A DNA stretch of 64,000 bases. Origin: Cenococcum geophilum (lineage: Eukaryota). The stretch lies in contig CP158635.1 of NCBI GenBank assembly GCA_050273025.1, forward strand, positions 17,918,001 through 17,982,000, in the 5' to 3' direction. The notes under the pieces were generated by a model that saw only the letters and a list, made by a program, of their open reading frames with translations, had not been told where the DNA came from and ran no database searches. Made by a program: the position numbers and the translations under genes. This document shows, piece after piece, positions 5,646 to 59,500 of the stretch; position 1 is the stretch's first letter, and every line of letters starts with the position of its first letter.

Positions 5646-5783
5646 TCTATAATATACTCTAATAGAGATAAAATATATACGTTTAAGCGTACTTTAAGTA
5701 TAAGTACTAAATAAAGAAGTTAGTAGCATATAATAAGTAATAAAGGGGTATAATATACCTCTAGAGACTGTGTATTAGTATAG

Positions 5784-5998
5784 TGTAAGGGATATTATTG
5801 TAGACACCTTAGGTTGCCTTTAGGATAACCCCCAGACGCCCCTTAGATAGTCGCCGGTCACGTGCTAAAGGCACGTGCCCGTAGTATATAGTCTCCATAA
5901 TCCTAGAGGCCTTACCTCCTTAAGGATTCATCTCTCTTACTAATCTATCCTGTTCCAATCGTGTCCTTATAGCCCCCTATCTATAAGATCCCCTTATA
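5784..5998 (+). repeat. 5' LTR of Gypsy element 1
   Basis: Starts TGTAAGGGA, ends CCCTTATA (RIPed ...TACA); colinear with 14492-14706, differing by transitions. Confidence 0.95.
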
Positions 5999-6139
5999 TT
6001 TAAATCCTTCCTACTTTTTTTTGGAAGGGTAGTCGGCTTTAAGGACTAGATTATTTGTTTATATCTTTTATTTATAGCCGCTATCCTCCCTTAAAATCTC
6101 GCGATAACTTAAACGGAAACTCCACGGATACCTTATGGA

Positions 6140-13330: not shown

Positions 13331-14491
13331 TAGTATTAGTTACGGGTTAGCGGGGGTTAGGGTTTTATATATAAAGGTAGGGCTAGGATACGCTGTGGAA
13401 TTTGCTTAAAAGAATAGTTAGCAGGAGAATAAAGAGGTATATTAAATTAATAATAAAAAAAAAGAAAATCTTAATAATATATTAAAGATACGTCTAAATT
13501 GGACGAAGGTTAATAATGGGAAGTAAGGTGTTAAGGAAAAGGATTAAGCTCAATAAGTAAAGTGTTTTTATATTTTACTGTCTATTACCCTTCCGGTAAA
13601 TAGCCGTAACCTTACTAATATAACTCTATTATAATAGCGTTATTTAAAAGAAAGGAAACACGTGTATAAGTTATTTAACTATTACTTCCTTATAAAAACT
13701 AACTACGCGGCCGGGGGAAGGCAATTAAGACGTTAAATTAAAGACGTATATAGGTTAAATTAGACCTAAAACAATACTATAGTATTAAAGAATAACGTCA
13801 TAGACGTTCTTAACAATCGCATAATAGCTATAATTACTATCGTGAAATGTCCCTATTTACTAGGCAGTAGAGCTACGCCAAATATACAGCACAGGACTAT
13901 TAGATTTAAAAGTATATATACTAAATCTTAAGAGATAAGTCTCTTTAACTAACTAATTAATACCTTAACCGCATCTAATAGCCTAAGGGTAAATACGGGA
14001 GCAATGTGTTAATAACGTAGAGGATTATAAGAAAAGGATTATAAGAAAGAATTATAGACTATATCTTAGCAGTTAAAGACGACGGCAAGCTAAGGCTTTA
14101 TATATTAAATCCTATACTAAAAGATTCTACGGAACTATACTGGAACACTAAATTATTTATAATACTTGTAATTAATTATAGACTAGTATAAAGGCTTAGA
14201 AGCAGAGTTGCATAAAAATCCCTATGTTAGCTTAGGTAGTCACCGGCATGCTTTTAGTAGGCTTCTAATAGGTCTCCTAGCAATCCTCGCGTCTTTTCCC
14301 TAGTTATATTTTTTCCTTATTAAGGTTTTTTAGGAGTTTAAAGCAGGGGTTAGATAGATAGATAATATATAGCGGTATACTAATACCTCTTTAATATCTC
14401 TCTAAACCTCTTCCGGGACAAGCCCTTATAATCTCCCTACCGTAAGGTAATAGCGATTGGGGGCTAACTGTAAGAAGGGGGGGGGGGGTAA

Positions 14492-14706
14492 TATAAGGGA
14501 TATTATTGCGGATACCTTAGGTTGCTCTTAGGACAACCCCCGGACGCCCCTTAAATAGTCGCCGGTTACGTGCTAGAGGCACGTGCCCGTAGTATATAGT
14601 CTCTACAGTCCTAAAGGCCTTACCTCCTTAAGGATTTGTCTCTCTTACTAATCTATCCTATTCCAATTATGTCCTTATAGCCCCCTATTTATAAGATCCC
14701 CTTATA
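14492..14706 (+). repeat. 3' LTR of Gypsy element 1
   Basis: Follows the G-rich PPT; matches 5784-5998; followed by TSD TATAG. Confidence 0.95.
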
Positions 14707-15804
14707 TATAGTCCTTTAGTTATATTTATATATTGTTAGTAAAACCTAGGATGGCTACGCGACTAGCTATATACGTAAGCTATATAACGAAGGCGGTTTG
14801 GCCTTAGTAACGAGAGGTAGGAGTATATATAGATTTAAATTGGGTTACGATGTAGTGTAAATCTAATAGTGTTAACCTATTATAGTAGGTGGGCGGTAAA
14901 GTATCTATAGCTCTATGCGTGACGAAGACTACTGCTAGTAGCTTAGGGTATACTAATTAGGAATAAGAGGCGTTATAAAAAGTAGGAGGAAGGTGCTATA
15001 AAGTAGGTGCTTTAATAATTAACAGGAGCGTAAGTTAGAATTAGGGTACTAGGCAGATTAAGCGTTATAACTAATATATTAGCAGCCTGTTATAAATGGC
15101 TTTTTAGCTTTATAGTAATATAATTATTTAAGGGCTTACTGGATGTCTTAGCCTACTATAAAAAATATAGCAGCTTATAAATACATTAGGAGAGGTTACT
15201 TAAGGTTTGTTCTGCTAAGCACTAAATAGTAGCACGTACGCTAACGCTACGTAAAATTATCTATTCTGCCCCTCTAGAAAGTCTAGGCCGCTACTAAATA
15301 ATTACACTTACCCTTCCCTTTTCCCTTTTTAATAAAGGCCGCGCCTATCCTCTATAATTTATATTATAAAAAACCTATCTTAAATAGGAGGCTATCTATA
15401 GATTAGGGCTAATTTTAGCAAAATTAGGGAAAGAGCTAAAGGATAAGTAGAAAGAGAGCGATAAAGATATAGAGATATGCCTAGATAAACTTTTACCTCC
15501 CCTTATAGAGCTTATATAAAAAGTAGTGGATCTTTACTAAGTAAATTAAAAAGAAAATTATATCTTACGCTTTTACTAAAATGGTTATAGATTTGGCGAA
15601 AAGAAGTTAACTTCATTTAAGTAAAAAAATAAATCGTTTTACTTTCTCTTCTCTATTAGCTTAATTGACTTAATTCCTATATGGGCGCTAAATAGTATAC
15701 TAAAAGTTAAGGAGCAATGTTTTAAAGTAGGAGAAACAACGTATATTATAAAGGGAGTTAATATATCTCCAGCTATGGAATTTCTCTTTCTCTGCTAAGC
15801 TAAG

Positions 15805-16228
15805 TATAACGGAACCTTGTAGCAGGTACTATAATAGGCTCATTAATAGGCTAGGTATATAGGTGAAGTAAGTTAAAGTTAACAATGTAATAATAACTAG
15901 TGGAGTAGTTGCCTAATAGATTAACTTTAATTGTATTCTAAGAATTACTATAAGGAAGGAACTATCTAGGTAGGGACTGTAGTCCTTTAAATACACAACT
16001 ATACTCCTATAAAATCCTCCTTATACGTAATATACGTACGCTCTATTTACTCTGTTACGGATTATATAGATCCTATAGATTATATAGATCACATTATATG
16101 ATCTTAGTTACTATTTCTTATTATATAGCTCTACCGGCTCCATCTTAGACCGTACTTAAATTAACTAACTAGCTTCTTCCGACTCTTCCCTAAGTAGTTA
16201 TAATATCGTACTTAAAGCGTCCGTAATA
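15805..16228 (-). repeat. 3' LTR of Gypsy element 2
   Basis: Colinear with 23325-23748; adjacent to the PPT. Confidence 0.95.
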
Positions 16229-23280: not shown

Positions 23281-23324
23281 TTATTCAACTTTTTACACTT
23301 ATTACCATAACTAGGTAGTGATTG

Positions 23325-23748
23325 TATAACGGAACCTTGTAGTAGGTACTACGATAGGCTCGTTAATGGGCTAGGTATATAGGTAAAGTAAGTTAAAGTT
23401 AATAATGTAATAATAACTGGTGGAGTGGTTGCCTAATAGATTAACTCTAATTATATTCTGAGAATTACTACAAGGAAGGAACTATCTAGGTAGGGACTGT
23501 GGTCCTTTAAATACACGACCGTACTTCTATAAAATCCTCCTTATATGTAATATACATACGCTTTATCTGCTCAATTATGGATTATATAGATCCTATAGAT
23601 TATATAGATCATATTATATAACCTCGGTTACTATTTCTTGTCACATAGCTCTACCGGCTCTATCCTAGACCGTGCTTGAATTAACTAACTAGCTTCTTCC
23701 GACTCTTCCCTAAGTAGTCGTAACATCGTACTTAAAGCGTCCGTAACA
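23325..23748 (-). repeat. 5' LTR of Gypsy element 2
   Basis: Ends CCGTAACA on + (TG start on minus), followed by TSD CTAAG. Confidence 0.95.
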
Positions 23749-23799: not shown

Positions 23800-25680
23800 A
23801 TGCATTCTTGTAAAATTAAAGTCTATATTCTTATCTAATGGAAGACTTAGAGGCTAGTGGTAATAGTATCCCCTTATTATCCCTAAGTTGTAGTTTAATG
23901 CCGGAAGTAAACTTTAAGGTATATTAAGCTCCGTATCTAGATTAACTCTTTACATCTAAATTATTCCTTTATTTGTATTAGATGGCGTTTTTAAAGGTTA
24001 AATATTCTAGTAAGATGTGGAAGAATAAAATAAGTAAGACTGTATATCGTTCTAGGCTTTGCCGTTAGAGTAGTAAAGAGAGTTAGCAGTAATAATAGGA
24101 TTTATAGCTAATAGAGTAGGTTAGTAATAGTGTTTTATACTTCCTTAGTAAAACACTATAAGGAGAGTAGAAGTACGTACTATTAAATAAAGCAGTTATA
24201 ATATTAGATAGTAGACTTATTAGCTCTATATCTTGCGTCTTTTATATCTGCTCTTAAAGCTAATCCAAGAGATTAGAGCCCTTATTATCCGCTATCTTAT
24301 TATCCGCCACCTCGTCGTCCGCCACTATATTATCCATCATCTTGTCGTCCGCCTCGCCATTATTTATTTCTATAATAAGGTTAAAATTCAAAGGATTATC
24401 CTAGTGGTATATTTAAAGGTTCTCCTTTGCGACCTCTTCGTTATATTTTATAATGCGGCATAATTTTAATAAGCTATAGGTATTACTAGTAATTTTTAGT
24501 AATAAATAGATAGGGCAAAACGGTCTCTATCCTTGGATCTTAGTGAATGGTTTAATGTATTTAGGACGTCCTAGGTGTTTTTTGAATTCGGAGGAGGTAT
24601 CTTGAAGATAATCTGCAAAAATTTAGTACCTTTTAAACGGCATTACGCCTAACTATATTAGTAATCTCCTAAGGTATAAGTGGAATTATATACACAAAAC
24701 AAAGATTTTAGAACTCCTATAGCCCCAACCTTTTTAGTACAACTTTGAAATCTGCTAGAATATCTAAAGCGCGCCCTGATAAAGACGTGCTAGGTGCCTT
24801 ACCTAAGATTTACTAAAGACTATTCGCATTATTTCCTTAACTTCTTTTAGATCCTGGCCTAGGGATATTATTAAATAGTAAAGAAGGGTAAATATAATAG
24901 TTTAGTAACGGCTTAATTAATTATAAAACTCTCCTATCTTTTTATTCCGTTTTTAAAATTCTATATAATTCGCCGCAACTTCTTCTAGCGTAAAGCTATT
25001 ATTTTCTAAAAGCAAGCCGCGGTCTTAAAGTGCCTCGCTATAACTAAGTAGATGTAATATTGTAATATAATTCTGTTTAATAGATTTAAGGTAAGTAGCA
25101 TTCCTTCTACCTTGCCATTTAGACGCGTTAGGAACGCCTTTAGTAAATCTACTTAACCGCTATATCTAAGGGGGATCTTTATCTTTTTAGGGAGTTAGAG
25201 GGTTAGATTAGTGCTAAGATTAAAGTAAAGGGCTAGTTTGTTAGTAAGGCTGAGGCTAAGAATTAATCGAGGGGAGAGGTAGAATTGGGGCGCTAGATTA
25301 ATGCTAAGGTAGAGGCAGCAAGGTTAAAGCGCTTTCCTAAGACTAAAGTTAAAAGCTAGATTGTTAGTAAGGCCATAGCTAAGAATTACTTAAGGGGAGA
25401 GGTAGAATTGGAGGGCCAGATTGGTGCTAAGGTAGAGGCAGTAAAGTTAGAACGCTTTACTAATACTAAAGCGAAGAGCTAGGATAAGGGGCAATTTAAT
25501 CTACTTAATTTTAAAGGTAAACAACTTCCTTCTTAAGTGAAGAAGAATATTCCTAAGGTAATAAAGGTAAATAACTTCCTTCTTAAGCAAAGAATAGGAT
25601 TCCTTAAGGTAACGAAGGTACTTTTCTTTATCTCCTTTAAAATTATAAAGACTCTTTCTACCGTTTATATTGTCTCTTAA
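23800..25680 (-). pseudogene. Unknown gene remnant with Ser/Pro-rich 123-bp repeats and an acidic tract
   Basis: 123-bp period repeat (AGGGGAGAGGTAGAATTGG at 25270 and 25393); readable minus frames (..KGWGYRSSKIF.., EADDKMMDNIVADDEVADNK). Confidence 0.4.
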
Positions 25681-26165: not shown

Positions 26166-26856
26166 CCTAGTATAGTTATTATAGAAAGCTTATAAGTTAC
26201 TAGGTCTATTAAGGAATAAAAGGTTTATACTCTCCTTTTTTCCTATATAGTGTTACCTAAAACCTATTACACTATTATATATAATTAGTCTTTAAATCTA
26301 GTACTAGGAGGTAACTGACCCCTAGACGCCCTAGGTGCCTTCTTTTATATTAGGCACTAATTTACTAAAGAAGCCGCTTAATTAAGTCATTTTAGTAGTA
26401 GCTTGCCTTATTTCTAAAGAATAATGCCTTATAAGCTAGCCCTCTCCCTTTTTCGCCTTTATTGTTTTCCTTTTAGATATTTAAGATTATGGCTTCCGTA
26501 GGCAGATTTATTTACCTTACTCTCTTTACTGTAATGGTTTAGATTTATAGGAATCTAAACCCCTCTATTATTAAAATAGGGCTCTTTAGTTAGTTAGTTT
26601 TATTTAACTGCTTTTTATCTTTGGCTTGCGCGATTGGTCTATATATAGGATTACCCTATATCCGTACTCTCTATTTAGTTAATTAGTGTATAGTTTGTAT
26701 TAGCAGTTTCTGTTATATTCTGTACCATTAAGGAGACTAGTTATATTATAATCGCAACCGGGATATATAAAGCCCCTCCGATTTTAGCTATTAGTTTCCT
26801 AATGTATAATATAGTTATATAGCCTTAGTATTAGGCTTTATAGTAATTGTTATAAA
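26166..26856 (-). repeat. Diverged inverted duplicate, copy B
   Basis: Reverse complement of 804-1567, with transitions, transversions and indels. Confidence 0.9.
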
Positions 26857-30400: not shown

Positions 30401-33077
30401 TTATTAGGATAGGAATTAGAAAATAGTACTAGCGAGAAATAAACTAATTATAAGAATATACGTCTTAGGGAGCTTCCCAGATAAGAAATCCTATAGGCTT
30501 TACAATAACCTCCCGGATAAAAAGCCCTATAAACTTAGCAATAAGAACAACTCTAATAGCGCGCCCTTTTAGTCCCTTCCCCCTATACTAAAATAGATAT
30601 ATAACAGCGTTACGTAATATAGAAAAAAATTTTAAGATAGCTTGTGTAAATAAACTAGGGTATACTTCTAAGCGCGTAAATATATTTACCCGTAGGTTTC
30701 TTAATTTAAAATATAAATAAAAGTTGTGGGTAACCTATAAAAACCACGCTGAAAGGACTATTAAGTAGATAGCTTAACTTCTGGATATATAAATCCATAA
30801 GTACCTTACCGCTATTGTGGTTGCATTACTAATATACATCTATATACAGCTTGTTATGCTCCTCGCTGCCATCTATATAAGAGCGTAATTTATATTAGTT
30901 TTAAGGCTGCCTGGGAACGTTTATACTTGCTAGCAGGATTAAATAAGATAAAGGGTAATAGTTAAAAATCAGTGGCCTATATAAACATAATAAAGGTAAA
31001 ACTGCTTAAGGGCTGTTGGTTATGGTAGCTAGATGCCGCTGGGTGGAAGGCGGTTTTCTTATATACTGTCGTTGGCCGTAAAGATAGGATATAAGCAAAT
31101 TGTATAGAGGTTGCTAGTTTTATACAAATAACTATGTATAAAGAGCTATATCTTATAATATATATAAGCGTTCTTAAATCCAAATGTATACTAAGATATT
31201 AATGGTATAGATATACTAATGAGCCTTATAAAACTCGTATTGATATTAAATTTCCCGTTTAAAGTTCTTTTGGGTTGTTTTAGCAGCTTTAAAATAGCTT
31301 AGATGCTATTATATTTTATATACTAAACATTTTATAGGTAATCTTGTACCTTGTAGTAGTTATACTAGAAGTTGGGGGGTATATACGGCAAAACGATGTA
31401 GGAAAAGAACGTTCTTACGGTGCAAAGTATTAAGATATTTCGGTCTAAAATTACCTATATTCTCCTAAAATACGTTACAGACTTAGCTAATTAACGGCAG
31501 TGGGATGTATATAAGCCTATACAATTAGATTGTCTATTAATGAGGATTTAAAGCTAGAGAAAGGAAAAGAAAGGAAAATAATCGTTATGCTGCTTAAAGT
31601 CAGGCTTTATATCCCCTAGTTACGTACTAGTTACGTACCTACTACTTTTTGCCATTTTTTCTGCCGCAATCTTCCGCAGTCTGCCGTTTTCTATCAGTGT
31701 ACGTAATAAAATCCAGCCAACTTTAGGCCAAAATATTATAATAACTACTAAACTATTTTATATAATTTTAACGGTGTTTTAATTGCCTTAATGAGCTTAT
31801 AAACTTAATGCTACCTAAATTTTAATAAAAGTATTAATTTATGCTATCCTAGCAAATTATAATAGAAATCCGAACAGCGCCCTACCTATGCTTATGTAAT
31901 TCTATATATGATTATAGGTAGTCTAATAGCGAGGTAACTAAGGACCACACCAAAAGTACGATATCTTTTTTTTGTAAACTTCTTAGCTCTATCTGCTATT
32001 GCCATTTACTTTAAATGCTTTTTAGTAAATACAGCCTAAAGTTATCATTATAGGCTTTTGGTCCTTCTAAGCCGTAGCTACGATATTCCATCAAGAGATC
32101 GCTAAGCTGGGGAAGAAAGGTTTGGTCTGATCACTAACTAAGCAATATAGATCCGCAATGGTTCCACAGCCCTTAATCCGTTTATTACCTCCTATCTAAA
32201 CTTAAAAATGGTAATATATGGTAAGTAACCTTGTCTAAGTGCTATCTTAAACTAATAAGCATAAGGGAATCTTCTACCCTCCTCCCCAAACAGCTTAGTT
32301 GCTAAATTATTCCCCTTACCACTAAAGAGTAGTTTCCTCTCCTAAACATTAACATTACCTAGTTGTAGATGTTCCTAAAATCCCCGTATATAGCGTGCAC
32401 TTAAGGCTCTTAAAGAGCGGCTTAGCAACCTTAAGAAGAGTATTAGAGTGCCGTTTACTAAAGCAATGCCGTTTAACTTTAATAAGCTAGAGCATGTTCT
32501 AAAGTATAGTAAATTATTAAGTATCGGCATTACACGTTTAGAGGGCCTAGTTAGTGCTTTATTTAATAATATAGGTAAAGCTAGGGTTATAAAGTAAAGG
32601 GGTAAAGGCGAGGTTTGTTTAGTTATTAACTGTGGCAGAAAATATAGATCTAAGAAAAGATTACGCAGGTATATTCAAGACACGTCTAGCCTAGGCTATA
32701 GGATTTAGGCTAAGGCTATTGCTTATACCTTTTATTTGGAATATAATATTGATCTCCGCAGCACTAATAGTCTCTAGGTTTATAATAAACAGTCTTACCC
32801 TAAAATATCTGCGTATTAGATTAAAGTTTATAAACTATTTATAAGAGTTATTCCGGGTAAGTACCTTATAAAAGCTTTATTTAATCCGCTTATGCTAATA
32901 TTAGCATTATTTTTTAAGACTCTAAGATTAGCTTCTAACGTAGAAGCCCTGATAAGGAGCGTAGCCGAAGAATCTCCTAGGTTATACCATTCTTAGAATG
33001 CTATAGCCACCCCTTAGAATAAGCCCCCCCTAGGTTTCACTACTACCGGTTTTAAGTTTAACTTAGATCCTCGCGGA

Positions 33078-33620
33078 ATGGTAGTAAGGAATCTTGGCGA
33101 GCTTGGTTTCGATACCCCGGCGGGTTTTAACTATACTTTTATATATAACGTAGCTGATGTTAAGTTTAATATAAACCCTTACGGAATGGCAATAAGGAAC
33201 CTTAATAAGCTTAGTTTTGATGCCCCGACGGGTTCTAATAGCGCTTTTATATATAATATAACTGATATTAAGTTTAACATAGACCCTTATGGAATGGCAG
33301 TAAGGAACCTTAACGAGCTTGGTTTTAGTGCCCCTATGGGTTCTAATAGCACTTTTATATATAACGCGGCTAATTTTAAGTTTAATATAAACCCTTATAG
33401 AATAGCAATAAGGAACCTTAACGAGCTCGGTTTTGGTGCCCTAGTGGGCTCTAATAGCGCTTTTATATATAACGCGGCTAATTTTAAGTTTAGTATAGAC
33501 TCTTATAGAATGGCAATAGGGAACCCTAGTAAGCCTAGTTTTAGTGCCCCCGCGGGTTTTAATAGCGCTTTTATAGGCAATGCTATTAGTTTTGATTTTA
33601 ACCTAGGTGGTTATGGTAAC
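33078..33620 (+). repeat. Five tandem 108-bp (36-aa) coding repeats, C-terminal part of an unknown gene
   Basis: Units start at 33078, 33186, 33294, 33402 and 33510; consensus ~MAIRNLNELGFSAPxGSNSAFIYNAANFKFNINPYG. Confidence 0.9.
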
Positions 33621-47444: not shown

Positions 47445-47810
47445 GTAGGGTTTGGAAGCATTTGTATGAAGTTATAAACTAGAATCGGAAGTTAATAATG
47501 ACCCCTAATAACGCCTCCCTTAGTAGGAATAGTATTATATAATTTACTTTTAATGCCTGTCCTTTATGGAATAAGACACTACTTAAGCAGTAGACTTACC
47601 CTAGCTAGTTAATCTTGTATATTAACTCCCCATCTATAGTAAAGGAGCTATTAGTGCGCTGCTAAAAGGCTTAGTTAGTATCCTAGCTAAGCCCTTTATA
47701 AATGCCCCGCCTTATATAGGCGGTATAATAACTCCTACTAATCTGCCTTACGCTAAGGGAGGACTTGTATTTAAGGCGCTAAGTAGCTAGTATAGAGGCC
47801 TATAGGCTTA
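47445..47810 (+). repeat. Direct repeat copy A (pairs with ~59133-59500), coding-like
   Basis: Shared blocks such as CTAGCTAAGCCCTTTATAA and CCGCCTTATATAGGCGGTATAATAACTCCTA. Confidence 0.9.
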
Positions 47811-49981
47811 TTTTATATCCTAATAATATTAACTACAATTTCTCTTTAAGTGGTATCCCGAAACCCTAAGTACCTATAAACGTAGCGACCCTAAATTGTT
47901 AGCTAGTAAGTGGGCGTTTATAGATAAAGAAATCGGCTTTAGAGATAGTAACGGCAATATAGAGGCGTTAACTGGTTAAGAGAGTAAATCTAGCGATAAG
48001 GATTAAGAATGGGACGTAGAGATATTATATAGCGGAGAAAATTATTTTAGTACTAAAGGTTAAGAAATATAGGTAGATAGCAATAAAGAGATATTAAGCG
48101 ACGAGGCTATATAGGCGACAATTAAATATGGTGGCCTTGGCTTTATAGTCCTAAATCTATAAGTATAGGATATAAATGCAAAAAAGAGTTCTAATAAAAG
48201 CTAGTAAAAGGGTTAAAACTTTGGCCTTTCTTTGTTTAGCCTATCGCGAAATAAAATAATATTTTACTATTCCTACTAAAGTCTCTACCCGCTTGACTTA
48301 TAGCGAGCTATAAAGTATTCGCGATAATCTATGCCTTCCCTTAGATGAGTTTATTTACTACCTTAAAAGCGATAATGGAATATAAATCTATACTAGTGAC
48401 CTAGGATTTTTTGCATTTTTTATAGACCTGGAATATATACCGCCTTAGTAACTATTAGTCGTGTTTAAGACTACGGTCCTTATAGATTTATACCTTAAGG
48501 ATATAAATATATTATTTTATAGTGTTTTCTTTTTATTTAAGTTATTTCTCTGCTTATTATATATAGTAGTTATTTATCTATTCCGGTATAGTATGGAGGG
48601 GTAGTTAGGTTACGCGAGGGGGCTTAAACTTATAGCTACGCTTATAGGGCTATTTATATAGGGACTTCTTTAAGTATATATAAGGGGGCTTTAAGTCGTT
48701 ATAAAGTTTATAGGAGTTATTATGTGGGAATTTCTTTAATATTTCTAGATCTAGTCTTATATATTTCTTTTATTTCTAGTTTTAGGATCTTTATAAGATT
48801 TACTTCTTATTAATTTAGATTTGCACGTAACGTATAAGGCTTAAATGTAGCGAGGCTAAAGAGGACGCTAGCGCAGAGCTTATCCGTCTTTAACTTGGCT
48901 ATTTATTACGGGTTCTAGATTATTAGTAAAACTGTTTAAATGTTTCTATTAATCCGCTCCGCCTAAATCGCCCATCCGCTGTAAACAAAACTCTCCCCTA
49001 TACGCTCTCCCGTTATTATTATTATCGCTACTATAATATGGCCTAACAGTTACCTAATTATAAATAGCTTTTCCTTAAAGAGTAATATAGACGACAAGAA
49101 GAGCAATACGGATAATAAGAAGAGCAGCGTAGATGGGAGGAGGAGTAGCGTAGATAAGAAGAAGCAGAGCGCGTATAGGAAGAAGTAGAGCGTGTATAGG
49201 AAGAAGCGGAGCGTATATAGGAAGAAGCAGAGCGCGCATAGGAAGAAGAATAATGTAGATGGTAAGAAGTAGAGCGAGCCTAGGAAGAAGCTGAGGGGAA
49301 AACCTATAAGATAACACTACCCAAGTTTCTTAACGCCTATTATACCTATCTCTACTTAGGCCTTACTATTTAAACTAATACGACGTTATTAATATGGGGC
49401 GACCCTACTAATACAAATAATAAGATTTACCCTAAAAGGATTTAAGCATAGGAAGATTTTTTAGTATAGTAGGAAGCTATCTAGAACAACCTTATAGGAT
49501 TAGATTTTATACTAAAACTGTACTTTACTTCGCTATATATATTAGAAGAGTCTAGGAAGGCTATTTACTAGAGGATAATAAGTTCTAAGCTAGACTTAAA
49601 TTACTTTTAGCGCTATACTGTTAAGGACTATATATTATCGATTATTAAATAACTTTATAATAATCCGACACTTTGGCGGAAGTTCCGCCTAAAAGGGTTA
49701 GTAAAGTTTAAAAATTATACTAATACTCTTAGCCCGGAATAGTAAATAAAGAAAGATATATAACGAATAAGTATATCTAGGAACTAGTAACGGTAGTCAC
49801 CCTATCTCTAAGCCCAGGCTAAGCAAATAAAGCCGCTAGACTCGGCTAACCTAGCTAAGCCTGCGGCTGTAGCAATGGTAGAATTAGTAAGATTATCACG
49901 TCTTTATATAGATTAGTTCTGCGTATATAATACTTTTAGTAAGACTTAGAATATAGAGCATTATATTACTACCTTTATTAT

Positions 49982-50159
49982 TGTTGGGAATATAAGCAAG
50001 TTGCCGTTACGTGCGGTAAGTTGCCGTCATATATCGCCGCGGCACTAGTGTGGCGAGGAGCCTTAAGCTCCTCGCCCCCCCTAATGAATACAAAAAGAAG
50101 AACAATTATTATACTATCTACGAACCGTAGCTACGTAATATCACCTTGTGTAACTAACA
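49982..50159 (+). repeat. Copia 5' LTR (178 bp)
   Basis: TGTTGG...CTAACA; two AAGTTGCCGT units. Confidence 0.95.
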
Positions 50160-53100
50160 CTAATTAGTAGTTAACTTTACTGTTATACTACAGAACAGCT
50201 AGGTATTCCACTAAGAAGAGATAAGCCACTATACCAGTACTACTCGTGCTAAAGGAAGCTATCTTTTAAGGTTAGAACTAGTCCTAAACCTTAAATAGAA
50301 CTCTTCTATAAATCTAAGGATTTAAAGGCTAAAACTAGTCCTAAGCCTTTCTAAGATTATAGATTCTTGCGTCTATTACGCAGAACAACACGCTTTATAA
50401 GTCTTCGCGATTTAAGGCTAGAACTAGTCCTAAGCCCTATAACCGCAAATATATATCACGAACGCGTACTAAACAATAAACGCGTACTAAATAATAAATA
50501 TATATTACAAACGCGTACTAAACGACAATCCCTATACTAATAACACTTCCTTCCCTCTAAAAACATAGCTACGCCTACTTTAAATAACTAGAAAGACTCC
50601 TTACTACTAGGGGTAGCTAAGCACACAAAACTTATTGATGAAGATTGGGACGAATTCGCCTTTAATATAATAACTTATACTATAAAACAAGTTAACGGCT
50701 TTCTCCTATACTATATTATATTTTACTAAAATAGATACTATGCCAATTTATAACTATAGGAGTATTTTAGGGAGGATTTTATAGAATGGACTGCTAATAC
50801 CTAGGCACTTAGCAACGTTAATATTGTTTAGGATTTTTAAGACTTCCTCTATAGGAATGGGGTATACGTTACTAAAAACGGTAACCTAATTACAAGCAAT
50901 ATTTAGGCCGTTATTATTAGTATAGAAGAACTAATATAGACGAAAGCTAAGATTATATATTAACTACGGAAACCTAAAAATAACCTATATTCTTTGGAAG
51001 GCAACTTTAATTCATATTAAAACCCCTAGAACGCTAACCCCCCACCTAGAGCTACTCTCCTACCTAGAGGTGCTCTCCCATTTAGAGTTACTCCGCTTTT
51101 ACCTCCTCCACTCTAGCTAACCGGTAAGCCTTTACTACGAGAAGTCACGAATTTAATAAAGGTATATTTGGACGAAGAGAAGAAGTTTAGAGGAGAACTA
51201 TATAACATACTCGGAGCAAAACTATAGGTCTTTTATAACTGTTATAATAAGGTTAAAATTTAACGCCACTAGTACCATTACGCTTTCTCTATTATATTAA
51301 AGGGATAGATAGCAATATTCTATTATAACTATATTACGGGTAAAAACTATAGCTTTAATATAATGCTTTAGCTTACTAAAGCCTACTTTAAGACTAATAA
51401 GAATCGCTAACTTTATATATCCAAATAGCGAGAGACTATATTTTAAAGAGTTATTACTTTTAACCCAATAAAGACTTATTTAGAGTACCTTTAACTACTC
51501 TTTAATAAGCTCTAGAAAATCTAATGTAGCTTTACTAAAACTTACTAAAATAAGAACAGTCTAAGGGACTAGGTTATCTTAGCCTACCGTAGCGTTCCTA
51601 AGTGCAATTTAGTGCTATATAAACCTATAGATACGTTTAAAGGAGTATATACCAAACTACGCTCCGCTATAGGTACTGCAATATAAATATAAGAACCTTA
51701 ATATTTCTATACCAAAAACCCTACCTAATTAAGTATTCCTAACTAATATAATTATAACTGGACTAATTAAATATATAGTGGCCGTAGTAGGGAATACGGA
51801 AGAGAGTACAATTAATGTTAACTATAAGGTAATTATAGAAGTCCTTATAGAGGTTTATTTCAAAGTAATTACTAAAAGAAGTGCTATATTTATAAGAAGC
51901 TAAATTGCTAGTTAACTAGACACTTCCTTAATAAGTAAAAGAAGGTATATAATAAGTTCCGTTAGAGTATAAGAAATGTTAAAAATTACAAGGTTACTAC
52001 GGCCTACTTTTAAAGCTGCCTAGTTTAATATAAAGGCGTAAAAGATCTTAAGGGTAAGGTTAATAAGACCGAACAGCTCCTTATAGATATGGAAATTAAG
52101 GACTACTTACCTAACTAATACTTTACTAAGTATAGTGAGGTAAATAGTACATAAACCGTCACTATTCTTAATAACTAATCTACGCTCCATTCTATTATAA
52201 AGTTAGATATCTTTAATAAGCTAAAGGAGAGCTTTACATTTTCCTTTAATAACAGATACTCGGCGAACGTCTTTTATAGTATTATACCGGATACTAAAGC
52301 CGTAGGAGTATCTATAGTAGGAAAACCTTAAGTTTAAGCCCTTTAGTAGCTTAATAGCTCTGTTTAGATTAACTATTTAACGGCAGGCCAACACATAATT
52401 TGTTTTAGCAAGGGTACTACAACCTCTTTTAGCATAATTAGGGTTTAAACCCCCTTAGAGTATATTGCTTTTTATATTATCCCCACAAATACCCTATTTC
52501 TATTTTATATTAAAGATATAAATAAACTAGGCGTTAAGCTTAATAACCTTAAGAATATACTTATGCAGGGAGATAATCGGGTGCCTATTATATATAAGTA
52601 GGGTCACCCTTAGCTGCTCCTTTAATAACTAGAAAAGAGTGTTGCTTAGATCCATTTAACTAAGTTAGAGTTACGCCAACTATACCATCGTTTTAGTTAC
52701 CTATTAGTTTACCAATTACTTAGGGTTCTTTAGTAAGTAGGCTATAAAGTTAAGGTTAAGGCAATTAAGTATCTTATAAAATACTACTACCACTGCCAAA
52801 TAAACTAGAGGTCCCCTAGCCAATTTAAGTTCACCCTTAAAGATAACTACGACTTTAACTTCTGTATTATCGTTAACGTTATATATCTTAGCAGCAAGCT
52901 AGTACTCTAAGTTATTAATTTCTTAACCTCCTTCTAAGCCGCATAATTCTTAAAGGATATATTAGCTAGGAACGCATGGGATACCCTTTAATTATACTAA
53001 ATTAATATCTACCTAGGACCCCCTAATTAAATTGTCTATAACGTAGGAAAGAACTTCTTATTTATAGAGTTCTGATAATAAATAAAGGCAATAGCAATTA

Positions 53101-55813
53101 AGGTTAAGGAAGTCCCTATTAAGGCATATAATAGTATTAGAAAAGTAGAGCGATATTATACGCCATTACGCCGCGTATATAAGATTATCTCTTTAGAACT
53201 AAAGGACGCTAGTAAAGAACTTACCTTATAAATAGCTATTAAAGCTATTAACAATTCCGCTGGCCCGGATAAACTCATACCTACATTACTAGTCTTTAGC
53301 GCCTACCCACGAATAACTAATAATTCTTTACTATTTCCCTCCGTTATATAATAAGCTAAGGCAATTTATAAGGTAATAAAGGAGGTACAACACCTCTATA
53401 CTACACGCTAGGTTAATAATATACTAAGAATAAGAAATAGCCTAAATACCTTAACTATAATTAATCTGCCACTCTAGTTTAAGGTACGCGTATAGCATAA
53501 AAAGGAAGGATAGTTAGGCCCACATTAACTTATTACAATTAATAGTTAAACTTATACTATTTAGATGCCTTATAGACCCACTTAATTCCGTTTAACTATT
53601 ATTAAGCCTTACTATAAAGATAATAATTTTAAGCCTTTACAGGATGCCCTAGAAGATGCCCTAAAAGAGAACCACAATTAATATACTCTAGAAGGCGACT
53701 ATAATCCCAATATAATTATAGTAGATGCGCTATAACTATAACGCGGTAGAGGTTGCCTAAAGGGATTACGAAATCACTAACATCTTATTAATTTTAAAGA
53801 ATAATTTGTTGCTACTATTAAGAATAGAGTTAAGTTATTAATGGCCTTTATAACAGCTAAAGAGAAGGCTAACTTTAAGCTCGTAAAACAGCTCTAAAAA
53901 GAAGGCTATATTATAACCCTAGGAGCTCCTTTCTAAGTATTTAACAAGTAGGAGATTGACGGTCTTATCGTAAGAGGAGTCTTTAAATTTAAGAAGTATA
54001 ACCCTACTAAGTTTAATAAAGTTCGTATCTTTAAGTTAAGGATAGTTAATAAGATTAAGGGTAAGGCTACTAACGCCCTATTTAAGAAATTAAGGCTTAT
54101 TATTTAAGGTTGTAATAATAATAGTAAGGAGATAATTTTTATATAATCTCCTATAATTTAACAAGCTAGTTAACGAGTTATTATTATATTAGCTCCCTCC
54201 TTAATAAAGAATAGAATAGCGGTCTATTTGCGAGATATTACCTAGGCCTACACCTAATTAGAGACGCACCTTTAGCGCTTAATATTGGCATACCTTCTAG
54301 AGCAAATTTGCCACTAATATCCCGAAGATATAATTATGGTTATGCTTAAGCTATTATATAGAATTGCAGAGGCAGGAACTTATTAGTGGGCTACCTACAG
54401 CAAGCACTATAAAGAGAAGCTTTTAATAACTACATTTATATTTGACCTATACTTCCTTATTATAACTATAGGAACTTTATTTAGAATTGTTGGTATATAA
54501 ACTAATAATATAATTATTTTGGAAGACGACCGATTCTTAGCTCTTAAAGAAGATAAACTAGTAAAGGTAAATCTTATAGTAAAACTAAAGGAAAAGCTTA
54601 ATTTAATAACACCATTACTCTTTAATAAATGTATCCTCTCCCTAAACGAGGATTCTATTGCTTTATGCTAGAAGGGTTAAGGTAAGAAGATCGACGTTAT
54701 TAACGTTAATTCTTTAAAGTAAGGATATGTGGAGCAACGCGCTTATAGAGCTTATGTTACTTTTATCTATTAACCTAAGGCTTTATTTAATCTCTCTATT
54801 ACCACCTAATACCAGGAACTAACTAAGGATAACGTTCTTGCCCTAAATAAACGTCTTTCCTAGTAAATAAACTATCTTAATTAGGGACTACTCTATATAC
54901 CTATTAATCTTCCTACCGCTAAGCTCTTTATATTTATTAATAGATCGTTTATAAATAATAAAGATTTTAGCTCCTAATTAGGATATAAGATTATTATTAT
55001 AAACGAATTTACTAGAGAGAATAACTTTATAATCTACAGCAATCTTATCTATTAAAGCTTAACTAAGAGTAAGTGCGTTATTTAAAGCGTTCTAGCGTTA
55101 GAGATATATAGAATGGTTAGCGGAGTTAATATGGCAATTACAATTGGAACTACCCTAAAGATAATTATAGATTAACTCGTACTTTCTATTATCCCTATAA
55201 TCGTATATACCAATTTATACTCCCTCTATAAGTACCTAGTTAAGCTTAGTACTATAAAGGAAAAGCGCCTTATAATTAATATTATGGCACTTTAATAATC
55301 CTATAAACGGCGAGAACTCTTTAAAATTTAATAAATTAATGGCTAAGATAACCTGGTAGATGTAATAACGAAGGTAAACCTAAATAAGGTACTAGAGACG
55401 TTTATTAACACAAATACTCTACGTATACAAGTTAAAGGTTAGGTTAAAAGGGAGTCCCTAGAAATTTCTTAGTTACGTAAGGTCTTAAGATATCCAGGAA
55501 CTTCGACCGCCGGTTAAAGTTGTCTAATTAGTTAGATTCTGCAGACCCTAACTTAACCTAGCTAATTAGGATTTTCTATCCCCAGGATAGAAAATCGCTA
55601 TTGGCTTGCTTACTACTAGCGCCTTAGCGGCCCTTTAAACAAGATATCTACCTGCGACTCCTAAGTAAGAAAGCACCACGTGCTAAGAGGCAAACTTTTA
55701 GGATAGCGAGACTTATATTATAATGGCAATAGTAAGTAAAGAGAATTGATATTTGTTACACTAGTCGAGCGGTATATATATATAGATGGCAACCGCAAAA
55801 GAAGAGTTGCTAG

Positions 55814-56011
55814 TGTTAGGAATATAGGCAAGTTGCCGTTATGTGCGGCAAGTTGCCGTTATATGCGGTAAGTTGCCGTTACGTGTCGCCGCGGCACTAG
55901 TGTGGCGAGGAGCCTTAAGCTCCTCGCCCCCCCTAATGAATACAAAAAGAAGAACAATTATCATACTATCTACGAACCGTAGCTATATAATATTACCTTG
56001 TATAACTAACA
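55814..56011 (+). repeat. Copia 3' LTR (198 bp)
   Basis: TGTTAG...CTAACA; three AAGTTGCCGT units. Confidence 0.95.
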
Positions 56012-59000
56012 ATTATTAAGTATAAGGCTCCCTATAAACTAACTCTTAGCTATATTTATAAGGGTCTTAATAATATAAAACTTAAGGAAGTAGTCTGCTA
56101 CCGTAAAATCGATAGCCTATAAGACCACTTCCGTTGCCTAGTCGCTGCTATTATTACTTAGGCCTTTTCTTATATGGTTTAGGCTGGACTAGAGTATAGG
56201 TGTATTTACACTAGTAAAGTATTTATTTTTTTGCGAGTGCCCTATAATTCTAAAACGGTTTACTACTTCCTATTTGTCCCTAAGGGTGACGTTAGGGAGA
56301 CGACTAGATAGGCACTAGATTTAGATAGGGGAAATTAATTATATTTAACCGCCATTAGATAGATGCTAGCATTTACCCTTTAGGCGCTAAAGACGCCGCC
56401 TTGGAATTAAAATTGGCGGACTAACGCGGCCGCTTAACTAAAAAGCTAGGAGGTAATCTATAATAATCTACTAGATATAATTCCTGTATATAATGCGCCG
56501 TTATTAAAGTACTAGGCACCTAGGTAAAATGATTTTCTTTATATATTACCTATCTAGCTTTAACCTAGAGTAACGTTAACTAGTCCCCCTTAGTGTCACC
56601 TATCGCAGAATTAGAGTAAGCTTAGTGATGACGAGTTTAATCCTAATACTCCAAGCCGTCTATCTTAGCGGTCTTTACCCTAGCCTTTACCTTAAGCCCT
56701 GGACCCTACTAGCAGATTATTATCTAGTCGCGATTCCCGCCATAGAGGTAAAGGTAGGCAGTATTGCACTTAAAAATGTCTTCTTAGCTTAGTGGAGGGG
56801 GGTTTGCTTAATAAGACGTGTCTAAACGTATAAGATTACGGTGGGAGCCGTTATTGGATTAACTAATCTACCTTCCTTAATCTTATGCGCTAGCAACTTT
56901 TAAAAGATTTAGATACTAATTATAAGCTAATAGGCGTATATAGAATACGCGGGGCTCTACTTAAGGTTAGGTTAACGTTATACGGATATACCCTAGCCGC
57001 AAAATGCACCGTTATTAACTTTGTTGGCCACTTAAATTAGGAGGCCACTATTTACGAGCGCCTTTATCCGATCTAGGGTACATATATACCAGTGTATTTA
57101 GGAAATATCGATTTTAACCGTCCGTATTTCTATAACGGTATTGCGGAGATTGTTTATATAATGTTTCTTAGTTTTAGAAGGAAACTGATCTTTTAACGTA
57201 TTAACGGTAATAATAGGCTATACCTAACAGAATAGGTTAAGCGCTTAATTCGGGCTGTCTATTAACTAGGAGTTTTGTACTAAGATATAATGCCTTATAA
57301 TATGCTTTAGAATATAGAGGTTAGTAAAGCAATAATAATTAACTTTAAATGGGCTGAGGTTTTAAAACCGCGGGCTATACTAGGTGTTATTTTACTAAAT
57401 TAGAAAAGAAAATGGGTACCTAAGGAGGGTCTAAATAAGTAGCCAGGAGGACGTCGTGATAAATTTATACGGGAGATGTAATAGGTAATAGTAGAACACC
57501 GCGGGTTAAAATAGCCGGGGTGTTTACCGTATTAGTAAATTAAATAGTCTTTATAGCCTTTAGACCTAGAAACCCTTATAGGCCCCCTTTTTTTCTATTA
57601 TTTTAAGGACAATGCTATTCTCTACTAGTAAAGAAGACGCTAGTAGACTTATATACGTGATAGTGGAACGTAGTTCTACTTGCTTTAGACGCTAAGCTTA
57701 GTTAAATCTGCTAATTTATTGCTAATTAAGCATATAAATACGGCAAATACTTACTATAAAGGGCGGGGCTATTTAGCTTAAATCTAATATATAAATTTTC
57801 TTTAATAAGTAAACGATATAAGACTAAAGAGCGTACTATTTAAGCTAATAAATTTCCTCCTCAATTCTGTAGACTTCTTTATCCTTAGGCTAAGTATGCC
57901 CTTTTTCTTTTAAATGCCGTGACCTTGTTTCTTGCCTTTGTAACTTATTTATCTCTATAATCTAAAGTTTTATTACTACCTTTTTAAGAGTATAGATTTC
58001 GTTTTAAAGCCACTTAATAGTATCTCTTGTCTCTTTCCAGTTACTTCTTAGGCCGTTAATTTAATTGTTAACCTTCCCTAAATAATTTATAATATAGCGG
58101 TCGCATTTTTTAAAACTGCTAACTCTCCTATTAAGTTGGCTAAGCCTGTAGCTAAGTTAATTAACTAAGCTACTTAGTCTCTTTATTGCCCCTAATAGAG
58201 TAAGCTAGGGGTCGGTAAGCTTTATTAGAAGGAGTTACTAAACGAACTATATTAAGACGACTTCTTTATCTTATTAGTGCGGAGTAAGTATTTCCTTATA
58301 GTTCCTTTTATATTGGCCTTATTATTCTCTAAATTACTCTTACGTTCCGATACTAACTAGGTATCCTACTTGTATTAGTAAGCTAGTGAATGGATAAAAC
58401 TATAGGGAAGCAACTATTGCATACCTGCCCTACTATATTAACGGCCTTATCGGAGCCCTTGGGATGGGAAGTATATAGTATATCCTAGCTCCGTTAGCGG
58501 TATCCTATAAAGGATTTAATATTTAGAGCGCACCTTAGCCTAATATAATATAGTATCCTCTATTATAGCATCTAAGTAGCTTATTATTAAAAAGATAAGG
58601 TAGCTAATAGTTTAAGTATTTACGAGAAAGTAAGAAGGGATTTCTTTAAAGGATACTATACTTAATATAGGTCTAGTTAAAGAATATAAAGGCCTTTTAT
58701 ATCCTGCTCCTCTCTACTACCTAGCTAATAGGAGAGCTAATAGTAGACTTCGCTTTAACTGTGCCTTAAAAGTCGAGCCGATTTATTAACTTAGGGATAC
58801 TAGCATAGTATTACAAATGCGCTATAATACGGCCATAATAGAAGTATAATCCTTTCTATCTATACCCACCTTTGCTATGCCTCTATAGGAGGGTTATATT
58901 AAACGATAAGGACTAGCATTAACCCCTTTCTTCCAATTATTTTAAGATGGCGATATAGAGGCAGCTAGTTAAGCGTTACTTTATACAGTAATACCCATCC

Positions 59001-59132: not shown

Positions 59133-59500
59133 TAGGGTTCGGAGGCGTTTGTATAAAATTATAAACTAGAACTGGAAGCTAATAATAACCCCCTAATAAC
59201 GCCTTACCTAGTAGGAATAGTATTATATAATCCACTCCTAACGCCCACCCTTTATAGAGTAGGGTACTGCTTAAGCAGTAGACTTATCTTAGCCAGTTAA
59301 TCTTGTATATTTACTCCCTATCTATAGTAAAGGAGCTATTAATGCGTTATAGGGTGGTTTAATTAGTATTCTAGCTAAGCCCTTTATAAGCGCTCCGCCT
59401 TATATAGGCGGTATAATAACTCCTATTAATCTACCTTGCGTTAAGGGAGGACTTATATTTAAGACACTAAGTAGCCAGTACTTAGGCATATAGACTTATA
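59133..59500 (+). repeat. Direct repeat copy B (pairs with 47445-47810)
   Basis: Colinear with copy A; lies at the end of a coding-like stretch from ~58400. Confidence 0.9.

Follow-up and report, generated by a model that had tools for sequence, protein, structure and literature searches.

The stretch of DNA analysed in this study (the window; 64,000 nucleotides of Cenococcum geophilum, contig CP158635.1 of assembly GCA_050273025.1, positions 17,918,001 to 17,982,000 of the forward strand) contains at 49038-57514 a gene resembling the Spok genes of Podospora, which is interrupted by a Ty1/Copia retrotransposon bounded by long terminal repeats (LTRs). With high confidence, this locus is a Spok-family pseudogene that was split by the Copia element and killed by repeat-induced point mutation (RIP), and it is without present function. 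The whole window is AT-rich (guanine-cytosine content, GC, 0.27-0.39 per kb), and no long open frames were seen around the pseudogene in the survey of open reading frames of the window. The locus is composed of the following parts, where + denotes the forward strand and a dot a feature without strand.

49038-49981, +, Spok-like pseudogene, 5' half, from codon 1 to the second base of codon 315; protein match to P0001 with an expectation value (E) of 5.1e-79
49117-49295, +, 21-nt tandem repeat array of 8.5 copies, encoding EEAERxX heptads of the N-terminal coiled coil
49977-49981,., left target-site duplication (TSD) ATTAT, matching the right copy
49982-50159, +, 5' LTR of 178 bp, TG...CA, starting with TG at 49982
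50160-55813, +, Copia interior, with a RIP-degraded polyprotein remnant in one frame at 52401-55739
55814-56011, +, 3' LTR of 198 bp with a 20-bp internal tandem duplication, ending with CA at 56011
56012-56016,., right TSD ATTAT, matching the left copy
56017-57514, +, 3' half of the pseudogene, from the last base of codon 315 to the stop codon 814; best E 1.5e-116

The relatives of the gene were identified by searching each half as a protein with X at the stops. The 5' half returned five proteins at E<=0.01, all of them intact and 755-801 amino acids (aa) long, the best of which is a hypothetical protein of Glonium stellatum, the nearest named relative. The 3' half matched 1474 cluster representatives at E<=1e-3 and 290 at <=1e-30. 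The family PF27653 (SPOK2_N) is precomputed on all five relatives of the 5' half and on 95-99% of the members in the three nearest clusters, clusters reaching 2593 members. A Pfam scan of both window halves, run with a library that holds no PF27653 model, gave 0 families at E<=1, and no protein named Spok was found among the 120 entries listed. An alignment of 62 sequences was prepared from the five relatives of the 5' half and 57 of the 150 matches listed for the 3' half, which were chosen by length, with fragments and long fusions left out. In P0003 numbering, the residues E278, K280, Q325, C527, C531, C545, H551, K606, E619, D700, N705 and D719 are invariant in these 62 homologues, and D254 and Y329 are nearly invariant (at least 90% of them). 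The family motifs follow the order D...ExK with QxxxY, C-x3-C-x13-C-x5-H, kinase catalytic loop and DFG-type Asp. The available text of Vogan et al. 2019 (PMC6660238) gives the same motif set for SPOK3, with D...ExK, QxxxY, the Cys cluster and the kinase Asp at the same spacing. The Spok-like identity proposed in the original prediction is therefore supported by halves that match intact PF27653 proteins carrying the published SPOK motif set.

The geometry of the locus was examined by removing 49982-56016 in silico (6035 nt, the LTR element and one ATTAT copy). This brings together 49038-49981 (944 nt) and 56017-57514 (1498 nt) into 2442 nt, i.e. 814 codons including the stop, in a single frame which reads ...TTFI/IKYKAPYKL over the rejoined junction (slash), so that the in-frame join ...TFI/IKYKAPYKL and the 814 codons of the original prediction were both obtained. 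When the five intact relatives were compared with the whole window by tblastn, each half was found as one high-scoring segment pair (HSP) in one frame for all five, and no second copy of the gene was found in the 64 kb. In case of P0003, 49038-49982 corresponds to residues 1-277 (E 3.8e-66) and 56012-57511 to residues 276-774 (E 0.0, 500 columns, 1 gap). The ATG at 49038 pairs with Met1 of P0003 and P0002, and the stop at 57512-57514 lies at the stop position of the same two proteins, which end in ...VELRGLK where the window reads ...VEHRGLK. There are zero frameshifts across the 2442 nt, and the length differences from the intact relatives are whole codons, mostly within the N-terminal repeat. 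The coiled coil and domain 1 lie in the 5' half, as does the first nuclease-core strand, which bears the conserved Asp (GAT at 49911); the rest of the nuclease domain lies in the 3' half, followed there by linker, Cys cluster and kinase domain. The tblastn and motif alignments agree that the start at 49038, the stop at 57514, the Cys cluster and the kinase HxD region share one frame.

The insert carries the features of fungal Ty1/Copia LTR retrotransposons, i.e. TG..CA LTRs, a 5-bp TSD and, in its intact relatives, an integrase upstream of RVT_2, whereas the window copy itself is too RIP-mutated for detection by Pfam. Scans of its six frames gave 0 families at E<=1e-3 and scans of four sub-pieces, two of them read out of frame, 0 at E<=10, because the RIP damage hides the domains, and the element was classed through its intact relatives instead. 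The stretch 52401-55739, with X at the stops, matched 31 proteins at E<=1e-3, the best being P0265 (E 0, 58% identity, 91% coverage). In P0265, rve (766-845) precedes RVT_2 (1168-1346), which is the Ty1/Copia order and type of reverse transcriptase; hence the insert is a Copia element, as had been proposed. The two LTRs are about 92% alike and are set apart by the 20-bp tandem duplication and 11 substitutions, all 11 of which are transitions. The insertion point lies between bases 2 and 3 of the Ile codon preceding the catalytic Glu of ExK, where the homologues read TTC ATT AT(C/T) GAG/GAA. The element landed inside this Ile codon with a 5-bp duplication of ATTAT, and its LTRs gained their transitions afterwards.

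The conserved residues of the family are found in the window in the following state (P0003 numbering).

56018-56026, +, remnant of the (D/E)xK motif, Lys-Tyr-Lys; the family residue E278 is now Lys (AAG at 56018) and K280 is kept
56159-56173, +, remnant of QxxxY; Q325 is a TAG stop and Y329 is kept
56765-56839, +, Cys cluster C-x3-C-x13-C-x5-H; C527, C531 and C545 are kept (codons at 56765, 56777 and 56819) and H551 is Tyr
57278-57286, +, kinase catalytic loop; His-Arg-Asp 698-700 is now Tyr-stop-Asp
57341-57346, +, position of the DFG-type motif; D719 is Asn and the Phe is kept

Further, G586 is replaced by Arg, and D254, K606, E619 and N705 are kept. The Cys cluster predicted at 56762 is present, and only its position had to be shifted, the first Cys codon being the next one, at 56765; the kinase HxD region predicted at about 57278-57286 is exactly the HRD position. 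In the rejoined frame, 66 internal stops were counted: the 5' half contributes 32 of them and the 3' half 34. Including the terminal one, there are 39 TAG, 28 TAA and 0 TGA codons, in agreement with the earlier description of the internal stops as RIP-type TAA/TAG. The 61 internal stops that could be aligned with P0003 stand in place of Q (40), R (15), W (5) and K (1), and the other 5 lie in gaps. Judged from their sequence, the killing half and the resistance half are both dead. The description of the frame as intact therefore holds for the absence of frameshifts but not for the 66 internal stops. Since RIP produces no indels, the reading frame survives it; that a gene killed by RIP has kept its frame is to be expected and does not point to recent function.

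The nature of the damage was analysed at both protein and DNA level. The window is identical to P0003 at 479 of 774 aligned residues (61.9%); 242 of the 295 differences are producible by C>T/G>A changes alone and 21 by the reverse changes, and identical plus RIP-explainable residues amount to 93.2%. Among the 535 columns at which P0003, P0002 and P0001 agree, the window differs at 170, where C>T/G>A changes alone can explain 163 and the reverse changes 6. At DNA level, the 3' half was compared with the intact metagenome locus L012 (GC 0.527). The 445 differences comprise 164 C>T, 127 G>A, 34 T>C, 36 A>G and 84 transversions, i.e. 291 changes in the direction of RIP against 70 in the reverse direction (about 4:1). 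Mutated sites by context were 130/215 for CpA (0.60), 78/180 for CpG (0.43), 43/190 for CpT (0.23) and 40/211 for CpC (0.19). Moreover, TpA/ApT (1.64-1.72) and (CpA+TpG)/(ApC+GpT) (0.39-0.49) are alike in the window, both gene halves and the LTR element; the shift of these indices was judged by contrast with the intact loci, where they are about 0.55 and about 1.32, respectively. RIP-inactivated genes in the AT-rich, repeat-rich regions of ascomycetes are characterized by a C>T/G>A bias, CpA preference and high TpA/ApT, and by numerous TAA/TAG stops but no frameshifts. The C>T/G>A bias and the CpA preference observed here are, as read from the bases, the signature of RIP, with the difference from RIP-inactivated ascomycete genes in general that CpG was struck almost as strongly as CpA. 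RIP turned C to T and G to A over the gene, the insert and the whole 64-kb window, producing the 66 nonsense codons and the loss of invariant residues. A paper of 2026 is said to deal with transposable element expansion and RIP in Cenococcum.

The nuclease and kinase folds that had been expected of the protein were looked for in models of intact relatives, and the kinase was recovered while the nuclease was only weakly matched. The AlphaFold model of P0003, obtained with the 62-sequence alignment, has a predicted local distance difference test score (pLDDT) of 82.3 and a predicted template modelling score (pTM) of 0.78, and contains an N-terminal helix at 8-61. For its kinase domain, Foldseek gave protein kinases (PKR 6d3k, E 6.5e-7). 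With VIA-align, the full-length model matched kinases in 50/50 rows, the best being Rio2 1tqi (Z 14.2, root-mean-square deviation (rmsd) 3.3, 161 aligned, model residues 564-774). The family profile matched Cdc7 in PDB (E 1.4e-7), and the window's own 3' half also gave Cdc7, weakly (E 0.0092). Since the full-length search returned only kinases, it was uninformative on the nuclease, and the natural 326-aa fragment P0105 was therefore folded separately (70-row alignment, pLDDT 73.4). By VIA-align it was matched best to BpuSI 3s1s, a type IIG enzyme, in its nuclease part (Z 6.0, rmsd 4.6, 115 aligned). Second came 3h1t, the HsdR of Vibrio vulnificus (Z 4.2), a protein that PMC6660238 names as its best HHpred match. 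DrdV, TT1808, EcoR124I HsdR, BsaWI and three more restriction-endonuclease-like chains were matched further, such chains making up 9/50 rows. A PD-(D/E)xK nuclease fold is weakly supported by this model and would be consistent with the motifs.

By homology, the ancestral protein would have been about 810 aa long and similar to the SPOK proteins of Podospora. Its predicted order is a coiled coil (encoded by the 21-nt repeat), a domain of unknown function, a PD-(D/E)xK-type nuclease core, a linker, the Cys cluster and an atypical kinase. The nuclease core would be formed by D...ExK and QxxxY, a core through which SPOK3 and SPOK1 kill by DNA damage, and the kinase domain would correspond to the one giving resistance in SPOK proteins. 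In the available text of PMC6660238, K240 of the nuclease motif of SPOK3 is required for killing, its Cys cluster and kinase Asp D667 are required for resistance, and the D667A allele is toxic; the kinase-dead SPOK1 D680A kills E. coli and yeast by DNA damage, for which the nuclease domain is required (Urquhart and Gardiner 2022, PMC9972908, available text). The toxicity which the original prediction expected of a kinase-dead version fits both of these mutants. The likeness to SPOK1-4, the single-protein toxin-antidote drivers of Podospora (PMC6660238; PMC9972908), extends over the variable-repeat coiled coil, D...ExK with QxxxY, the Cys cluster and the kinase with its catalytic Asp, and the 21-nt array is the counterpart of the 'variable length repeat' of Spok genes (PMC6660238). 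The spacing of the Cys cluster is identical to that of SPOK3, and the third Cys is separated from the catalytic Asp by 155 residues in P0003 and 156 in SPOK3. On the other hand, the window copy is non-functional, and its likeness to these proteins is one of motifs and architecture, not of direct alignment.

It is quite possible that the ancestral gene was a Spok-family homologue which was never a meiotic driver, with another cellular or defence role and hence no toxin-antidote allele. With 1474 representatives at E<=1e-3 and clusters reaching 2593 members, this is a very large family. As far as the available text of PMC6660238 goes, drive or killing is shown only for Podospora genes, with partial evidence for Fs_82228, and the close homologues studied there belong to Sordariomycetes and one Eurotiomycete, outside this clade. 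However, the killing and resistance residues of SPOK3 are all invariant in the 62-sequence alignment, and a multi-copy family in which 20/36 metagenome loci have at least one stop shows the pattern described for drive gene families (PMC6660238).

According to the original prediction, the gene was intact until the Copia insertion and RIP. This was examined with contigs of three DNA runs (X1, X5 and X6) and reads of the RNA run X21, aligned to 48500-58000 at a likeness of at least 90%. The summed depth in X1 is 2e5-7e5 over the Copia interior and 1159-1929 over the gene halves; in X5 and X6 the values are about 1-3.5e4 and about 20-100. The Copia family is very abundant. The exact X1 contigs on the gene have a depth of 76-127; a summed gene depth above that of the exact contigs suggests several related gene copies, and several copies of at least 90% similarity appear to be present in the genome, some of which lack Copia. 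The differences among the X1 contigs on the locus are 564 transitions and 14 transversions. An empty-site joint 49976>56012, skipping exactly 6035 nt and with 6 letters that fit either side, was found in an X1 contig (depth 688, side 22 nt) and again in X6 (depth 6.7, side 32 nt). One X5 contig covers the boundary between gene and 5' LTR, and over 214 nt it shows 20 differences. Between the window and intact-type sequence there is a difference of about 30%, so that contigs at 90% or above must share most of the RIP-type text. Moreover, the same gene occurs as a separate RIP-like pseudogene in the metagenome locus L019 (3-1361), which has a GC of 0.31 and, among 453 codons, 39 stops; its DNA identity to the 3' half of the window is 77%, and its flanks beyond the stop codon are unlike those of the window. 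We consider it rather probable that the gene was already RIP-mutated and duplicated before Copia landed in this copy. The differences between the LTRs are all transitions, hence RIP continued after the insertion. The claim of a gene intact until then is doubtful, since the empty-site contigs match the RIP-mutated text at 90% or above, though the order is not proven. The TSD was also considered as a clock and rejected: ATTAT is without C or G in the homologues too, and it cannot order RIP and insertion.

A single intact gene that was disabled first by the Copia insertion and then by RIP leaking from the repeat into the gene is, on the same evidence, an unlikely course of events. It agrees with the lack of frameshifts and with only 7/170 non-RIP changes at conserved columns, which leave room for little decay before RIP, and with LTRs that differ only by transitions, which place RIP after the insertion. 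Both gene halves also lie within 1.5 kb of the element, whose family in X1 stands at 2e5-7e5 summed depth against about 1.5e3 for the gene. But the empty-site contigs of X1 and X6 still match the RIP-mutated text, the RIP indices are equal across the whole window, beyond the neighbourhood of the element, and L019 is a separately RIP-mutated relative with different flanks. Neutral decay of an old pseudogene, in place of RIP, as the source of the AT-richness and the stops is very improbable: the 84 transversions and 70 reverse transitions against L012 do speak for some ordinary divergence mixed in, but against neutral decay stand the 4:1 excess of C>T/G>A with its CpA preference, the 2442 nt without a frame-breaking indel, the absence of TGA stops and the transition-only differences of the LTRs. 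That the 3' half still works downstream of the 3' LTR as an antidote-only fragment, as might be thought from an insertion which parts the nuclease Asp strand from ExK, from an LTR oriented as the gene, and from SpokPsi1 and a P. comata fragment that keep only the resistance part (PMC6660238, available text), can be dismissed and is refuted for the present sequence by 34 in-frame stops and the loss of the Cys-cluster His, the HRD loop and the DFG-type Asp.

The RNA run X21 (about 12% read) informs neither way on the locus: 25 reads touch it, 24 of them only partly, and 0.96 of what was aligned runs on into unlike sequence. Eight X21 reads match only about 35 nt of the conserved kinase region (57220-57255), beyond which they turn into unlike sequence richer in GC; an intact relative, expressed and located elsewhere in that organism, may be their source.

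Several points weigh against a RIP-killed, Copia-split Spok pseudogene that was duplicated before the insertion. Membership in the family was assigned through the Pfam name, the motifs and the architecture and not through a direct alignment to a Podospora SPOK, and any driver activity within this Dothideomycete-like clade is putative. In case of the nuclease, the VIA-align matches of P0105 include one chain at Z>=5 and none at Z 8, and Foldseek gave 0 matches for the same model at E<=1e-3. CpG is mutated nearly as often as CpA, unlike the classic Neurospora pattern. The reading of several copies is drawn from contig depths that were summed, and such sums are not copy numbers. The sides of the empty-site contigs are short (22 and 32 nt), at 90% likeness.

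The closest known counterpart of this RIP-killed, Copia-split gene is SpokPsi1 of Podospora anserina, described in the available text of PMC6660238 as a Spok pseudogene that carries a complete DNA transposon besides its many stop mutations. The same text reports putative pseudogenes among Spok homologues and a birth-and-death dynamic of such families. In-frame stops, the insertion of a whole transposon and a kept position of the family stop codon are common to SpokPsi1 and the window. On the other hand, SpokPsi1 contains the DNA transposon discoglosse and its killing part is absent, whereas the window has a Ty1/Copia element and the full length of the gene; the host lineage is also different, with Glonium stellatum as the nearest named relative, and the damage in the window, with 66 stops, is much heavier.

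By itself the locus carries little weight, being one more dead Spok-family gene, in a lineage near Glonium stellatum, which took death routes already known for drive genes, i.e. stops by point mutation and transposon insertion. The resurrection of an ancestral allele, as originally suggested, would be possible only by guessing about 300 changed codons with homologues as a guide. Such a resurrection is needless as well, because intact natural relatives exist and a reconstruction adds nothing beyond them: 16/36 related metagenome loci are free of in-frame stops in the matched stretch, and P0001-P0005 are intact. These natural relatives, rather than a reconstruction, are the suitable material for functional tests. 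The locus can serve as a teaching case that a RIP-killed gene keeps its frame and that an intact frame is no evidence of recent function. For studies of Spok birth and death, it offers an insertion one base from the catalytic Glu, RIP-type copies without Copia and intact close relatives. The literature matches listed for Spok with Dothideomycetes, Cenococcum or Glonium held no mention of Spok, and those listed for Spok pseudogenes, RIP, homologs and Starship held nothing on this lineage.

The pseudogene and its surroundings are enclosed by a pair of direct repeats, which may not belong to the gene.

47446-47811,., left copy of a 367-bp direct repeat, 84% identity to 59133-59499
59133-59499,., right copy, partner of 47446-47811

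Their start-to-start distance is 11,687-11,688 nt, or about 5.65 kb minus Copia, which gives a unit of about 6.0 kb. The repeats show no TG..CA ends and no matching 5-bp flanks (cttag and accct); ends and TSD speak against LTRs, an identity which is improbable. The flanks of the pseudogene found no match in the 36 related metagenome loci, and in X1 the summed depth at 48500-48816 exceeds that of the gene about tenfold. We regard it as improbable that these repeats bound a repeat unit which carries the dead Spok-like gene as cargo and was copied further when the gene was already dead. If they were the ends of an LTR-type non-autonomous element with a captured Spok homologue, this would be a second vehicle for Spok hitch-hiking besides the Starships.

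Some further features were observed among the related loci and in the rest of the window. The metagenome Spok-family copies L023-L035 form a graded series with 3-12 in-frame stops and a GC that falls to 0.38-0.48, each as one HSP in one frame. Their TpA/ApT is low (about 0.3) and their (CpA+TpG)/(ApC+GpT) high (1.45-1.8), opposite to the classic RIP indices, which suggests a different, possibly CpG-type, hypermutation in that organism. Within the window, direct repeats of 300 bp (15804-16103 and 23324-23623, 90%, 7.5 kb apart) coincide with a block at about 16-23 kb in which GC skew and AT skew are both strongly negative, and a second pair of 222 bp lies at 5781-6002 and 14489-14710 (90%, 8.7 kb apart); both pairs look like the LTRs of further retrotransposons. 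Tandem arrays are present at 33050-33616 (period 108 bp, about 5 units, 74-79% alike) and at 25214-25459 (period 123 bp, 2 units, 82%). Finally, 804-1565 and 26168-26856, about 25 kb apart, share three collinear inverted-repeat segments of 128-259 nt (83-91% complementary), possibly as oppositely oriented copies of a single element.

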